64,000 nt of DNA. Source: Candidatus Bruticola sp. GTDB lineage: Bacteria > Vulcanimicrobiota > Xenobia > Xenobiales > Xenobiaceae. The notes beneath the pieces were generated by a model. The model did no database searches and had not been told where the DNA came from. It saw only the letters and a list, made by a program, of their open reading frames with translations. Every line of letters starts with the position of its first letter. The stretch's first letter is position 1. Position numbers and translations under genes: made by a program. The DNA lies in contig JBJEGD010000013.1 of the NCBI GenBank assembly GCA_051874735.1, positions 1-64,000 on the forward strand, read 5' to 3'. Positions 12,319 to 17,070 of the stretch are shown here, piece after piece.

Positions 12319-13356
12319 TTAAGAGCGCAAGTTACTGCTGTCAGTTAAATGTCTGTGGGCAGCGACAGTCATTGCAGGAGGTTTTGTAGGTTTAAAATTC
12401 TCTTGAGCTTCTCTTATGTGAGGCCAAAGTTCTCCTTTGTATCGGCGTGAATAGTGGAAAAGATAGAGGCTGCCCACTTTCAGCTGATTGGCAATGCGCC
12501 CAACTTGACGAGCTGTCAAATGCAAATTTTTTACAGCTTTCTCACGCTCTGTATGACGGTAACAAGCTTCACACCACAGTTCATCTGCACCTTGACCGAC
12601 CCAATGAATAGAGGCCATGCTGTCTCTGTTAAAAACTGTATCAGTAACATAGGCATAACGACTGGGCTTGGGATAATAAACTAAGGAGCGCAGGGCATCG
12701 ATAGTCTTTACTTCATCGCCGACTTTGAGATCGTGAGGTTCAGAGATTTGACCTGAGCATATTTTCAGCAGTTGACCGATCCAAGAACCGGAGGGGAGAC
12801 CAGACTTAGCCAATTCATCTTTTTTAATGCGCGCCTGTAAAGGCTCAGTAATTGAATAACAAAGGCAGGGAACGCCGTGTACTACTGGCGCAAAACGCAG
12901 CATCGTGCCGTCGGCAAGACGCAGCTCAGGATGAGTGAGCGGATGAGCGCGCCGATCGTCTATATCTTCTATAAATCTGTTGGAAGCTCTGAACAGGTAG
13001 GATACGACTTGAGTATCTTCTAATTCACAGCATTTTATAGCAAAATTCGAATCGTCAGTCAAATTCCAACTATATCCTTGCAGTCGGCTGCTGATCTGGT
13101 TAGCTAATCCCACAGGGCCGAAGAAGACCAGTTCTTTTGATTCGCGCAAGTTCATGCGCATAAGAGTGTCGAAACCTATAAAATGATCGATATGGGAGTG
13201 GGTGATAAAAACGTTTTTGGTGTCGATCATGGTGCCGACACTTAAGTTCCGGAGATCTCCACAGTCAAATAACCAATATTCGCGCGTATCATTAACGCGT
13301 ACTAAAACTCCAGGATCTTCCCAGGGTTGATTAATTAGAGTACAAGTATATTTCAT
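12319..13356 (-). CDS. RNase Z-like MBL-fold metallo-hydrolase
   Basis: LINQPWEDP, LFDCG, ITHSHIDHFIGFD, HGVP, GLPSGSWI exosite-like arm, YVTDT, CEA, HLT, FHYSRRY. Confidence 0.8.
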   Translation of the reverse strand: MKYTCTLINQPWEDPGVLVRVNDTREYWLFDCGDLRNLSVGTMIDTKNVFITHSHIDHFIGFDTLMRMNLRESKELVFFGPVGLANQISSRLQGYSWNLTDDSNFAIKCCELEDTQVVSYLFRASNRFIEDIDDRRAHPLTHPELRLADGTMLRFAPVVHGVPCLCYSITEPLQARIKKDELAKSGLPSGSWIGQLLKICSGQISEPHDLKVGDEVKTIDALRSLVYYPKPSRYAYVTDTVFNRDSMASIHWVGQGADELWCEACYRHTEREKAVKNLHLTARQVGRIANQLKVGSLYLFHYSRRYKGELWPHIREAQENFKPTKPPAMTVAAHRHLTDSSNLRS

Positions 13357-13375
13357 TAAGCGGCTGCCCCCCATG

Positions 13376-14128
13376 TTAAGCTAGATACAGAGCTAACTCA
13401 ATCATATCGTGCAGAGAATCTTGGCGTTGCTGAGCTGTCAAAATTTCGGAATGTCCCAGCACTTCGCTGACTGTAAGAATAGTTAAAGCTTTTTTGCCAT
13501 GCAGGGACGCATTAGTATAAAGTATTGCTCCCTCCATTTCACAGGCTAAAACTCCTAATCGGCTCCATTTTTCATAACTGTTTGAAGCATCGTAAAAATA
13601 GTCTGAAGTTAAAATATTGCCGGTATGAACCGGTAATTTTTTCTCTTGGCAGCGTTGGTAAGCTTGGAGTAAAAGTTCAAAATCGGCTAAAGGAGCGAAA
13701 GTTCCGTTTAGCTGGAACTGACTAATAAAGTTTGAATTAGTGCAGCAGCCTTGAGCTAGAATTATATCTCCTAACTTAAGATGAGGTTGCATACCTCCGC
13801 AAGTGCCGATGCGAATAATTTTTTCTACTCCCATATAAGCAAAAAGTTCATGGGAGTAGATTCCCATAGAAGGGCCGCCCATGCCGCTAGCCATAACTGA
13901 GACGCGCTTGCCTTCATATAGTCCGGTGTATCCTTGGACAGAGCGTACATCATTGACTAACTCCGCATGTTCTAAGTAATTTTCGGCAATAAAGCGGGCT
14001 CTCAAGGGATCGCCAGGCATTAACACTGAAGGAGCGAACTGTTTAGGATGGCTGTGAATATGAGGAGTACCGACTTTTAAATTTGAAATATCAAATGAGG
14101 ATATTGTACCGCTTGCAAAAGACTGCAC
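13376..14128 (-). CDS. deoD: Purine-nucleoside phosphorylase (DeoD type)
   Basis: TPHI, VLMPGDPLRA, GMGGPS, RIGTCG, EMEGA; likely GTG start at 14128 after AAGGA (the tracked TTG start at 14263 would overlap dus). Confidence 0.92.
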   Translation of the reverse strand: MQSFASGTISSFDISNLKVGTPHIHSHPKQFAPSVLMPGDPLRARFIAENYLEHAELVNDVRSVQGYTGLYEGKRVSVMASGMGGPSMGIYSHELFAYMGVEKIIRIGTCGGMQPHLKLGDIILAQGCCTNSNFISQFQLNGTFAPLADFELLLQAYQRCQEKKLPVHTGNILTSDYFYDASNSYEKWSRLGVLACEMEGAILYTNASLHGKKALTILTVSEVLGHSEILTAQQRQDSLHDMIELALYLA

Positions 14129-14196
14129 CTCTATTCCTTCCTTTCGCTCTAAATTAGATGTATCAACTGACTGAGTTTCAAAGTTGGTATCTTTGT

Positions 14197-15465
14197 TCAG
14201 ATTATTAATTTCCGTTTTATCCGTTTCAGCTTGATGGGAAGCTTTGACTTCATTAAAAGGCAAACCGCTGGCCGAAGCTTTTTTTGTTCTTTAGCTGCTT
14301 TCTGCTCAGCCCGCTGTTTAGCTTGCCTGCTGTATTGCTCCTTTAATTCTGGAGCTAAGGCGGCCAGTTCCTCATATAGCCAAGTTCGATCATGCTGATC
14401 AGCTGCGCAGAGAACAAAAGTGTTGGCCAATTTTTGACGGAACGTTTTCCCATAACCAGCTAAAACTATATCGAGAGGATCGCCTTCGTAAATATTATCC
14501 AGACGAGTTTGAATTAGAGGATGCTGGCGCGAGCTCTGGTGGTACTTCTCTTCTGGCAGATAGCGGTAGCGACTGAACAGATCAAAATGCCAAACGAGGA
14601 AGTTGCTGACAGTGCGCTGTCCGTGGGCATCGCTGCCGAAGTGTTCCAACATGTAATTGGTCAATTGTAGGTAAATGGCGGCGCGTTCCTTAGGGGATAG
14701 ATCTAAATCGATTTTATCCCGTATCTCTTGGAATATCCAGGGTTTTATAAGAGCTCCGCGCCCGATCATAATACCTTGGGCTCCGCTGGGAAGCTGTTTA
14801 TCTTCAGCTTCATACCAGGTTAGTATATCGCCGTTGCCTATGACAGGAATACTCACACTATCGACAGCTCTTTTGACAACGCTCCAATCTGCTGCGCCCG
14901 TATAGCGCTGCTCACGGGTTCGTCCGTGCACTGTAATAGCGCAGGCTCCGTACTTTTCCGCTAAATTTGAAGTCGTCTCAATATTAATATGGCCTTCTTT
15001 GTAACCTGAACGAAGTTTTACCGTATAGGGAATATGCGCGTTCTTTTGGAGTACTTCAAGGAGCAATTCCAACTTTTTAAGACGATCTAGGAGCTGCGCA
15101 CCCATACCTTTATTAACAGCTTCATCTATGGGGCAGCCGCAGTTTAAATCTATGAAGTCGGCACCTGATTCTTCGATTATAGGTATGGAATTTTTCAGAT
15201 CTTCTGGGTTGTTTGTTAAAACTTGCACACCAAAGCACCGCTCTTGGGGAGCGCGGCGCAGCAGAGCCAAATCTTTGCGGTTGCCTTTAGCTAAAGCGGA
15301 GGCAAAAATCATTTCTGATATGGTAATGGTGGCTCCGAAATTGCAACACAAACGACGGAAAGGCAGATTGCTGCCTCTGCTCATGGGAGCTAGGATGACT
15401 GAATTATTCCAACTACTAATCATAGGCGGGGGAAGTTCCGTATTTGTCCATATATTCCCTTTCAA
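14197..15465 (-). CDS. tRNA-dihydrouridine synthase, Dus3-like
   Basis: LAPM, NLPFRRLC, DFIDLNCGCPID, HGRTREQRYT, ADW, GNGDI, GRGALIKPWIF, LEHFGSD; start uncertain (TTG 15465 or ATG 15423). Confidence 0.9.
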   Translation of the reverse strand: MKGNIWTNTELPPPMISSWNNSVILAPMSRGSNLPFRRLCCNFGATITISEMIFASALAKGNRKDLALLRRAPQERCFGVQVLTNNPEDLKNSIPIIEESGADFIDLNCGCPIDEAVNKGMGAQLLDRLKKLELLLEVLQKNAHIPYTVKLRSGYKEGHINIETTSNLAEKYGACAITVHGRTREQRYTGAADWSVVKRAVDSVSIPVIGNGDILTWYEAEDKQLPSGAQGIMIGRGALIKPWIFQEIRDKIDLDLSPKERAAIYLQLTNYMLEHFGSDAHGQRTVSNFLVWHFDLFSRYRYLPEEKYHQSSRQHPLIQTRLDNIYEGDPLDIVLAGYGKTFRQKLANTFVLCAADQHDRTWLYEELAALAPELKEQYSRQAKQRAEQKAAKEQKKLRPAVCLLMKSKLPIKLKRIKRKLII

Positions 15466-15618: not shown

Positions 15619-17070
15619 ATGGTTCGTGTACGTTTTGCTCCCAGTCCTACCGGCTATCTTCATGTCGGCGGTTTGCGCACTGCACTTTATAATTATCTTA
15701 TGGCCCGTCATGAAGGAGGGCAGTTTATTTTGCGCATTGAGGATACCGACCGCACTCGTTTAGTAGAAGGGGCGGTTGAGGCTTTGCTCGATTCGTTAAA
15801 ATGGGCAGGCTTAAAGCCCGATGAAGGTGCAGTAGTTGGAGGAGATCGCGGCCCGTATGTACAGAGCGAGCGTTTGCCTATTTATCACAAAATGGCTCAA
15901 AAATTAGTCGATGAAGGCCATGCTTACTACTGTTTCTGCACAGCAGAGCGCCTAGAAAAAATGAGGGCTGAGCACAGTGCTAAAGGAGAAAGCACGGCTT
16001 ATGACCGAGCTTGTCGAAATTTATCTAAAGAAGAGGTCTCCGAAAGACTATCCAAAGGCGAACCGCATGTCATTCGTCTTAAGGTTCCTGATGGACGCAC
16101 TTTGACCGTACACGATATAGTACGTGGTGAGGTAAGCTTTGATTCTTCTTTAATTGACGATCAGGTTTTAATTAAGACTGATGGTTTCCCAACTTATCAT
16201 ATGGCTGTCGTCGTAGATGACCATCTTATGGGGATCACTCACGTCATTCGTGGTGAAGAGTGGCTCTCTTCTACGCCTAAACATTTGCTGCTTTACGAAT
16301 TTTTCGGTTGGGAGGTTCCTCAATACGCTCACGTTCCTTTAATTATTAATGAGAACGGTAAAAAGCTTTCCAAGCGCGATGGTGATGTGTCAGTTGAATC
16401 TTATCGGGAAAAAGGCTACTTGCCTGAGGCTATGCTCAATTTCCTCTGTTTGTTGGGGTGGAACCCCGGTGATGAACGTGAGTTTTTCACTTTAGAGGAC
16501 CTTTGCCAAGTCTTTTCCATTGAGCGCGTGCGCAAGTCCGGCGCAGTTTTTGATTTCGATAAGCTTTTATATATTAATGGATTGCATATGAGAGCTAAAT
16601 CGAATGAAGAATTGGCCGATCTGGCTATGCCGTTTTTCGATAAGTTAGGCAAAGAGCGTCCAGAACGTTCTTATCTTATCAAAATTGTGGAATTAATGGC
16701 TGAGAGGGCCAATTTGCTGACAGATTATGTAACTGAGGCCCCTTATTTCTATGCTGATCCGGAAACTTATGAAGAAGCCACAATTAAGAAACGCTGGAAG
16801 GCAGCTAGTCATGCTTTGTTGTCCGGGTGGATGGTTATTTTGCGCGACCTTGACGACTTCACTCCAGAACATTTGGAAGCCAGCTTGCGCGAGTTTGCTC
16901 AGGAGCGGGGTGTAGGAGCTGGCCAGCTGATTCATCCTGTGCGCTTAGCTTTAAGCGGAGTAGGTAACGGACCCAGTCTTTTCCATATGATGGAAGTTCT
17001 GGGTAAAGAAACTTGTTTGCGTCGTTTGCAGAAGGCTTTGAACGTTCTTCCTGACGGTTCAATCGCTTAA
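15619..17070 (+). CDS. gltX: Glutamate--tRNA ligase
   Basis: VRVRFAPSPTGYLHVGG (HIGH), RIEDTD, YYCFC, KKLSKR (KMSKS); ATG 15619 after GGAG. Confidence 0.97.
   Translation: MVRVRFAPSPTGYLHVGGLRTALYNYLMARHEGGQFILRIEDTDRTRLVEGAVEALLDSLKWAGLKPDEGAVVGGDRGPYVQSERLPIYHKMAQKLVDEGHAYYCFCTAERLEKMRAEHSAKGESTAYDRACRNLSKEEVSERLSKGEPHVIRLKVPDGRTLTVHDIVRGEVSFDSSLIDDQVLIKTDGFPTYHMAVVVDDHLMGITHVIRGEEWLSSTPKHLLLYEFFGWEVPQYAHVPLIINENGKKLSKRDGDVSVESYREKGYLPEAMLNFLCLLGWNPGDEREFFTLEDLCQVFSIERVRKSGAVFDFDKLLYINGLHMRAKSNEELADLAMPFFDKLGKERPERSYLIKIVELMAERANLLTDYVTEAPYFYADPETYEEATIKKRWKAASHALLSGWMVILRDLDDFTPEHLEASLREFAQERGVGAGQLIHPVRLALSGVGNGPSLFHMMEVLGKETCLRRLQKALNVLPDGSIA

Follow-up and report, generated by a model that had tools for sequence, protein, structure and literature searches.

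A Dus3-like tRNA-dihydrouridine synthase without zinc fingers in Candidatus Bruticola, from a probable bacterial sister clade of eukaryotic Dus3

Introduction

Can a tRNA-modifying enzyme type that has been regarded as eukaryotic also belong to bacteria in its own right? The question is raised by an open reading frame (ORF) at positions 14197–15465, on the minus strand, of a 64,000-nucleotide stretch of DNA from Candidatus Bruticola sp. (Vulcanimicrobiota, class Xenobia; assembly GCA_051874735.1, contig JBJEGD010000013.1, positions 1 to 64,000). This whole stretch is called the window below. According to the original prediction, made from the sequence alone, the ORF encodes a eukaryote-type Dus3, i.e. 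the tRNA-dihydrouridine synthase forming dihydrouridine at position 47 (D47) in the variable loop.

Eight Dus subfamilies were distinguished by Kasprzak et al. (2012), and in the accessible text of that paper Dus3 consists of eukaryotic sequences and is proposed as the ancestral eukaryotic enzyme (PMC3674756). The scheme is repeated in the accessible parts of reports from 2022 and 2024 (PMC9775027, PMC11162810). No description of a prokaryotic Dus3 was found in the literature, the accessible parts of PMC3674756, PMC9775027, PMC11162810, PMC9176250 and PMC11317573 included; Supplemental Table S1 of PMC9775027 (occurrence of Dus subfamilies across 324 genomes) lay outside the search.

Results and Discussion

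Identity of the protein

The ORF is 422 amino acids (aa) long when counted from a TTG codon, and its membership of the Dus family, as predicted, is far above chance: the Pfam model PF01207 matched residues 24–311 (profile positions 1–293 of 311) with an E-value of 1.5e-64 and 218.5 bits, compared with a cut-off of 20.4. The motifs GSNLPFRRLCC, NCGCPIDEAV, HGRTREQRYTGAADW, GRGALIKPWIFQEI and LSPKERAAIYLQLTNYMLEHFGSDAHGQRTVSNFLVWHFDLFSRYRY occur in the translation, and every string quoted in the prediction was found there. The eukaryotic Dus3 motifs that had been given beside them agree in substance with the consensus of 12 Dus3 proteins named as such by their sources. All 19 columns that are conserved in every Dus group are intact, including Q81, N108, C111, K150, R152, H180 and R182, which in Dus structures are residues for catalysis and for binding of flavin mononucleotide (FMN) and substrate. 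Judged by these conserved residues, the protein very likely carries out FMN-dependent tRNA-dihydrouridine synthase chemistry using NAD(P)H.

The Pfam search of the protein returned PF01207 alone, with no zinc finger and no other domain, in agreement with the claim that the N-terminal zinc fingers of the eukaryotic enzyme are absent. The N-terminus lies 10 residues ahead of the catalytic barrel, and the CCCH zinc finger by which Dus3 is recognized is lacking. An AlphaFold2 model built on 18 relatives (predicted local distance difference test 88.9, predicted template modelling score 0.84) consists of a triose-phosphate isomerase (TIM) barrel at about residues 20–255, followed by helices at residues 258–396.

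Placement beside Dus3

Similarity to eukaryotic Dus3 was higher than to DusA, DusB or DusC, as had been predicted. In BLAST comparisons, 12 canonical Dus3 proteins scored 200–235 bits (40–44% identity over about 290 residues), and none of 13 DusA/B/C-type proteins exceeded 163 bits (23–39% identity). A tree of 61 proteins and 378 columns was then calculated with IQ-TREE (LG+C20+F+G4; midpoint rooting only; support as ultrafast bootstrap/Shimodaira–Hasegawa-like approximate likelihood ratio test). Its rows were 5 Xenobia proteins, that of the window included, 19 other bacterial Dus3-like proteins, 12 short algal forms, the 12 canonical Dus3 and the 13 DusA/B/C-type proteins.

One branch (100/99, length 1.16) separated all Dus3-type rows from all DusA/B/C-type rows. 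Canonical, zinc-finger Dus3 formed a clade (100/99), and its sister was a clade of the bacterial proteins and the algal short forms (95/94). Within the latter, the algal forms were themselves a clade (100/99) placed among the bacterial rows, and the window protein nested among bacterial sequences of several phyla. DusB was the next-closest group (96/75). Three of the DusA/B/C-type rows were long-branched, among them the DusB-like paralogue from the window's own genome, whose end branch of 2.7 substitutions per site marks it as highly divergent.

The same division is visible in single columns. Twelve columns of the tree alignment reach 90% conservation or more in each of the two Dus3 groups and do not exceed 20% in the DusA/B/C rows (F78, G79, I113, I240, K241, R261, D279, F289, R299, Y300, P316 and R321). 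Of these, P316 and R321 fall where 92% of the 13 DusA/B/C-type rows have a gap, in an insert common to both Dus3 groups. In the Dus3 signature stretch the window protein reads LAPMSRGSNLPFRR, the canonical consensus is LAPLTTvGNLPFRR and the bacterial consensus is LAPlt.GgNlPFRr. Compared with the string LTTVGNPPFRR in the accessible text of PMC3674756, the GNLPFRR core was found in the window protein and the TTV part was not.

The NCBIfam scores, all under the respective cut-offs, favour this placement: DusB (TIGR00737) ranked first with 232.8 bits, under its cut-off of 293.3, and DusA (NF008774; 90.4 bits, cut-off 269) and DusC (NF007838; 86.9 bits, cut-off 395) were far under theirs. Several points weigh against it. 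The best sequence match among solved structures (PDB) was, as with the family models, E. coli DusB (6ei9, E = 1.3e-40), and a Foldseek search with the model also placed 6ei9 first (E = 4e-20; template modelling score 0.78 on target length), other Dus structures coming next. DusB thus comes first among family models and solved structures alike; no Dus3-like chain turned up in the PDB sequence search or in Foldseek. Long branches (0.73 + 0.30) part the bacterial clade from canonical Dus3. Of the phylogeny proposed with the original prediction, the part with DusA/B/C-type and canonical Dus3 rows was run, and Dus1, Dus2, Dus4 and archaeal Dus were left out; human DUS2 alone was compared, via the PDB (82.5 bits). 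Nesting inside DusB, which had been named beforehand as an outcome that would refute the prediction, was not seen: the 100/99 branch stands between, and forcing the bacterial and algal clade together with eight DusB-type rows cost 42.3 log-likelihood units and was rejected by the approximately unbiased test (p = 0.016), a value tempered by the fact that this group was defined only after the tree had been seen.

On balance, comparison of the sequences makes it very likely that the gene is part of a bacterial clade that lacks zinc fingers and is sister to eukaryotic Dus3. It is best placed as a sister subfamily, i.e. a variant, and not as a member of canonical Dus3, because the zinc fingers, one of the defining features of the latter, are absent. 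The description as a eukaryote-type enzyme in a bacterium thus stands in the sense of a Dus3-type protein, and does not stand in the sense of an import, since a broad bacterial clade lies beside the eukaryotic one and is not nested in it.

Distribution of the bacterial clade

A homology search covered 5.8 billion proteins, from which 8000 candidates were scored (7006 at E ≤ 0.001) and the best 120 listed. Among the matches listed, the closest (67–87% identity) came from relatives of Candidatus Bruticola, and 6 of the 120 were fusions of 662–691 aa with a PF01048 phosphorylase. A second tier in the same 120 (43–57% identity, about 370 aa) was bacterial, with source names including Planctomycetota, Acidobacteriota, Armatimonadetes, Bdellovibrionota, Dadabacteria and Vulcanimicrobiota; one match was from a green alga. 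At least 15 of these best 120 relatives bear the automatic JGI name 'tRNA-dihydrouridine synthase 3'. This independent annotation agrees with the placement.

When the search was restricted to proteins longer than 580 aa, the best 120 consisted of the 6 Xenobia fusions, 23 long forms without zinc fingers (some of them fused to PF01588) and 91 canonical Dus3 from animals, fungi, Dictyostelium and green algae (39–44% identity). PF25585 was present in all 91 canonical proteins, and PF00642 or PF18044 also in some. Some sources name the proteins 'zinc finger dihydrouridine synthase' or the like, and these three models presumably mark the zinc-finger region of Dus3.

The existence of a bacterial Dus3-like clade, as had been suggested, was borne out by a motif scan in which each prokaryotic species was represented by one genome. 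Two clade motifs picked out 319 stretches, 230 of which encode a relative. The phyla of the best 80 of these 230 loci, read from record titles, were Planctomycetota (33), Acidobacteriota (12), Bdellovibrionota (9), Pseudomonadota as labelled (5), Vulcanimicrobiota (3), Myxococcota (2) and Thermodesulfobacteriota (1), with 15 unresolved. Almost all of the 80 are metagenome-assembled genomes or other uncultured-genome assemblies.

Within Vulcanimicrobiota, 27 of 151 sampled genomes had a match at E ≤ 1e-70: all 18 other genomes of the same family together with the window's own, and half (8 of 16) of those from one sister family. None of the 116 genomes from the remaining 19 families had a match at this threshold. 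The gene is thus restricted, in this phylum, to two families of one order, and all nine other genomes of the genus carry it. Such a patchy distribution suggests that the gene was either acquired by transfer or lost in many lineages.

These data also bear on the origin of the gene. An identity of about 40–44% to animal, fungal and algal Dus3 could in principle mean that a gut bacterium has recently imported eukaryotic Dus3, or that the assembly is contaminated with eukaryotic DNA, but canonical Dus3 is a separate clade (100/99) and the window protein lies among bacteria of several phyla. Moreover, the gene is present throughout the sampled genomes of the genus (9/9) and family (18/18), its neighbours are bacterial (gltX, deoD and a metallo-beta-lactamase-fold gene), and the G+C content is even across the window (0.39–0.46). 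Import or contamination was rejected on these grounds and is regarded as extremely improbable.

A search with the green-algal match recovered many algal proteins without zinc fingers, 350–560 aa long, for which the UniRef name is tRNA-dihydrouridine(47) synthase; Chlamydomonas, Dunaliella, Bryopsis, Tribonema and Pedinophyceae are among the carriers. Several of these Dus3-type proteins have an N-terminal presequence (P0093, P0132, P0163, P0169, P0187, P0196, P0231 and P0243), and the algal short forms may be organellar. In green algae and Tribonema they represent a second Dus3-type protein; Pedinophyceae sp. YPF-701, for one, has the short form (P0196) in addition to a canonical Dus3 with zinc fingers (P0279).

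Paralogues and the probable target site

The genome to which the window belongs (2.47 Mb, 92% complete) contains three Dus genes: the Dus3-like gene, a DusA gene (349.6 bits, cut-off 269) and a DusB-like gene (contig C10, L003:1462–2475), which at 186 bits is under the DusB cut-off of 293. A fourth, weak Dus match in this genome is PreA. A DusB type was found alongside the Dus3-like gene in all five other genomes examined, i.e. in 6/6 when the own genome is counted. One of the five carries all four types (DusA-, DusB-, DusC- and Dus3-like), and such coexistence argues that the target of the Dus3-like enzyme is non-redundant.

In one Acidobacteriota genome (G002, contig C11) the DusB-type gene matches the Dus profile in three consecutive pieces (L097, L100 and L102; profile positions 2–121, 122–184 and 184–302). 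The middle one lies in another open frame, for which a double frameshift or an insert could be responsible.

In the proposed mechanism, the TIM barrel would hold FMN and the catalytic Cys111 (in NCGCP), and the helical domain, with an extra C-terminal segment common only to Dus3, would dock the tRNA. The D-loop would be served by DusA (D20/20a type) and the DusB-like enzyme, and the Dus3-like enzyme would reduce U47 of the variable loop. U47 is the most likely substrate because DusA and a DusB-like enzyme are already present, and because the characterised relatives reduce U47: the accessible texts give position 47 as the site of yeast Dus3p (PMC3674756) and U46–48 as that of human DUS3L (PMC9176250). 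By homology to these two enzymes, a D47 site comes near to an even chance, falling a little short of it. As a mapping method for D47, AlkAniline-Seq by itself may overlook the site beside m7G46 (PMC11162810).

The tRNA genes of the genome are compatible with such a substrate. ARAGORN detected 49, of which 47 were parsed; 35 have a 5-nucleotide variable loop, with T47 in 29 and C47 in 6. No DTW-domain enzyme (3-(3-amino-3-carboxypropyl)uridine, acp3U47, type) was found in the 92%-complete genome. Neither the T47 counts nor the DTW result discriminates strongly.

Other considerations reduce the confidence in D47. U47 is common in bacterial tRNAs generally, and its presence is hence non-discriminating. 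The link between the clade and position 47 is drawn from homology. Site choice also varies in DusB, for which the accessible texts give D17 in E. coli, D17/20/20a in Mycoplasma capricolum (PMC9775027) and D17/20/20a/47 in Bacillus subtilis (PMC11162810). Because site choice is labile within a Dus subfamily, the case for D47 is weakened.

The enzyme might then be related to Dus3 by descent and yet act on the D-loop, or on several sites like multisite DusB, instead of being a dedicated D47 synthase. The DusB matches in NCBIfam, PDB and Foldseek would fit such an enzyme, as would the variation of specificity within subfamilies (PMC9775027, PMC11162810, in their accessible parts); in addition, the divergent DusB-like paralogue of this genome may have lost or changed its function, leaving D-loop sites to the Dus3-like enzyme. 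Against this, the Dus3-specific residues and the insert in the recognition domain are shared with Dus3, and coexistence with DusA-, DusB- and DusC-type genes in one genome suggests a non-redundant site. A D-loop or multisite enzyme is accordingly considered possible but rather unlikely. Taken as a whole, the favoured reading of a bacterial, zinc-finger-less synthase that is sister to Dus3 and likely acts on U47 is judged to be probable.

Gene structure and fusion to a phosphorylase

The start of the gene is probably ATG 15423 and not TTG 15465, because both the gene caller and all close relatives begin there: the gene caller's form (P0002, 408 aa) starts at M15 ('MISSW'), and so do the relatives at the matching residue. 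The conserved coding part of the Dus3-like synthase (M15–K396 of 422) covers 14278..15423 on the minus strand, as delimited by PF01207, by relatives that are colinear from MISSW to KEQKK and by the AlphaFold2 model. Within it, and on the same strand, the predicted FMN-binding TIM-barrel catalytic domain (about residues 20–255) occupies 14701..15408, as judged from the strand/helix pattern of the model and the 19 columns common to all Dus types. The codon of the putative catalytic Cys111, which aligns with the GCP cysteine of E. coli DusB, is at 15133–15135. The helical domain with a presumed function in tRNA recognition, together with the Dus3-type C-terminal helical extension (about residues 256–396), is assigned to 14278..14700 on the basis of model helices 258–396 and the columns specific to the Dus3 supergroup (R261, D279, F289, R299, Y300, P316 and R321).

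The remaining residues, 397–422 (14197..14277, minus strand), read LRPAVCLLMKSKLPIKLKRIKRKLII and then a stop, and are conserved in no relative. In the other frame, 14197–14277 reads ASASGLPFNEVKAS, which matches the conserved SxxGLPF motif of the relatives. The last 26 codons of the ORF are out of frame, as judged from the relatives, which continue in the other frame into a DeoD-type phosphorylase. An in-frame run through SxxGLPF into this phosphorylase was found in 8 of 11 close-relative loci (L008–L013, L016 and L018); the other three (L014, L015 and L017) have a stop shortly past the motif. Open frames of 667–738 aa are present in 8 of the 9 other genomes of the genus. These reading frames indicate that in this genus the Dus3-like protein and a DeoD-type purine-nucleoside phosphorylase (PNP) are normally produced as one fused chain.

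In the window, the linker and phosphorylase part extend over 13376..14278 on the minus strand, with a frame that opens only from 14287. This part passes TIGR00107 (deoD) with 254.4 bits against a cut-off of 232.25, and aligns colinearly and without gaps to residues 382–682 of the fusion protein P0003, at 81% identity. The frame changes at an A7 homopolymer (14279–14285, minus strand): the junction is GAACAAAAAAAGCT in the window, with A7, and GAGCAAAAAAAAGCT in the nearest relative L008, which has A8 and stays in frame. An assembly error or a recent mutation most likely accounts for the A run being one base shorter here. Of the public runs listed, two matched at the level of the contig, with 6–9% of the sampled words, and neither covered 14216–14355; no RNA run was among those listed.

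The split could instead be deliberate, a programmed −1 ribosomal frameshift giving both a free Dus protein (408 aa, from ATG 15423) and the Dus-PNP fusion. The frame change falls exactly on A_AAA_AAG (14278–14284), formed by the A run and the following G, a heptamer of the dnaX slippery type, and a −1 slip there would yield KEQKK-ASASGLPF, the in-frame fusion junction of the nearest relative. That relative, however, is simply in frame with its A8, the A run is entirely absent from six other fused relatives, and the 80 nucleotides downstream of the run fold no better than shuffled sequences (z = 0.38; 121 of 200 shuffles at least as good). Since a one-base homopolymer error or mutation is also the simpler explanation, programmed frameshifting is considered improbable.

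Gene neighbourhood

Downstream on the minus strand, a gene for a protein with a metallo-beta-lactamase fold (12319..13374; PF12706, E = 5.6e-09) begins two bases past the stop of the phosphorylase and is probably in the same operon as the Dus gene. On the other side, gltX (glutamyl-tRNA synthetase; 15619..17070, plus strand; PF00749, E = 5.3e-114, and PF19269, E = 5.2e-35) is transcribed divergently. Clustering of 762 ORFs from the best 80 loci showed the metallo-beta-lactamase-fold gene to be a neighbour of the Dus gene in 12 loci, the 11 of the close relatives (L008–L018) among them, and it is kept there even in close relatives without the phosphorylase. It is the only conserved neighbour, within the close relatives only, and no neighbour common to several phyla was detected among these ORFs. 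The three next-largest clusters resemble shadow ORFs that run antisense to the Dus gene itself.

Implications

With these results the Dus3 enzyme type would no longer be confined to eukaryotes, and the accepted eukaryote-only scheme would have to be revised, with the bacterial sister clade offering a possible bacterial origin for the Dus3 lineage. A more speculative and rather doubtful scenario is that the clade is a fourth bacterial Dus subfamily, a dedicated U47 reductase, and that eukaryotic Dus3 descends from it, acquired before the last eukaryotic common ancestor with zinc fingers added, algae later taking a second, bacterial-type copy for their organelles. If true, Dus3 would not be a vertically inherited 'ancestral eukaryotic Dus'.

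The small zinc-finger-less proteins are probably easy to express, and could serve as material for a first study, by structure and biochemistry, of how Dus3-type enzymes recognize tRNA. A dedicated D47 enzyme is predicted for phyla with unmapped tRNA modifications (e.g. Planctomycetota, Acidobacteriota, Bdellovibrionota and Xenobia). In the gut Xenobia, moreover, a tRNA-modifying enzyme and a nucleoside phosphorylase are fused, an unusual combination. The novelty is tempered by the ordinary chemistry and by databases that already hint at the Dus3 identity.

Comparison with known systems

Eukaryotic Dus3/DUS3L is the sister group of the clade described here, with 40–44% identity to the window protein, and shares with it the 12 clade-specific columns, the insert after the helical domain and the motifs GNLPFRR, GCPI(D), QRY..ADW and RGALIKPW. 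Unlike the eukaryotic enzymes, the window protein has neither the N-terminal zinc-finger region nor the long disordered N-terminus; its clade has bacterial hosts, its genus has the PNP fusion, and its target site is a predicted one. The algal short forms, e.g. CHLRE_10g423400v5 of Chlamydomonas reinhardtii (P0132), resemble it in their short architecture and C-terminal segment HPLIxTR, share 41–50% identity with it and fall into the same clade as the bacterial proteins (95/94), but they are eukaryotic and have N-terminal presequences, and some are fused to PF01588.

DusB, represented by E. coli DusB (6ei9; TIGR00737), has the same fold and chemistry and is the closest solved structure, whereas the window protein is under the DusB cut-off, has only 33% identity (150 bits) to it and is separated from it by the 100/99 branch; the two types also coexist in the six genomes examined. 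According to the accessible part of PMC11162810, B. subtilis DusB1 is the only bacterial enzyme shown to make D47, and it is a multisite member of the DusB subfamily. Set beside it by description only, the Dus3-like enzyme of Candidatus Bruticola would make the same modification, if the assignment of D47 is right.

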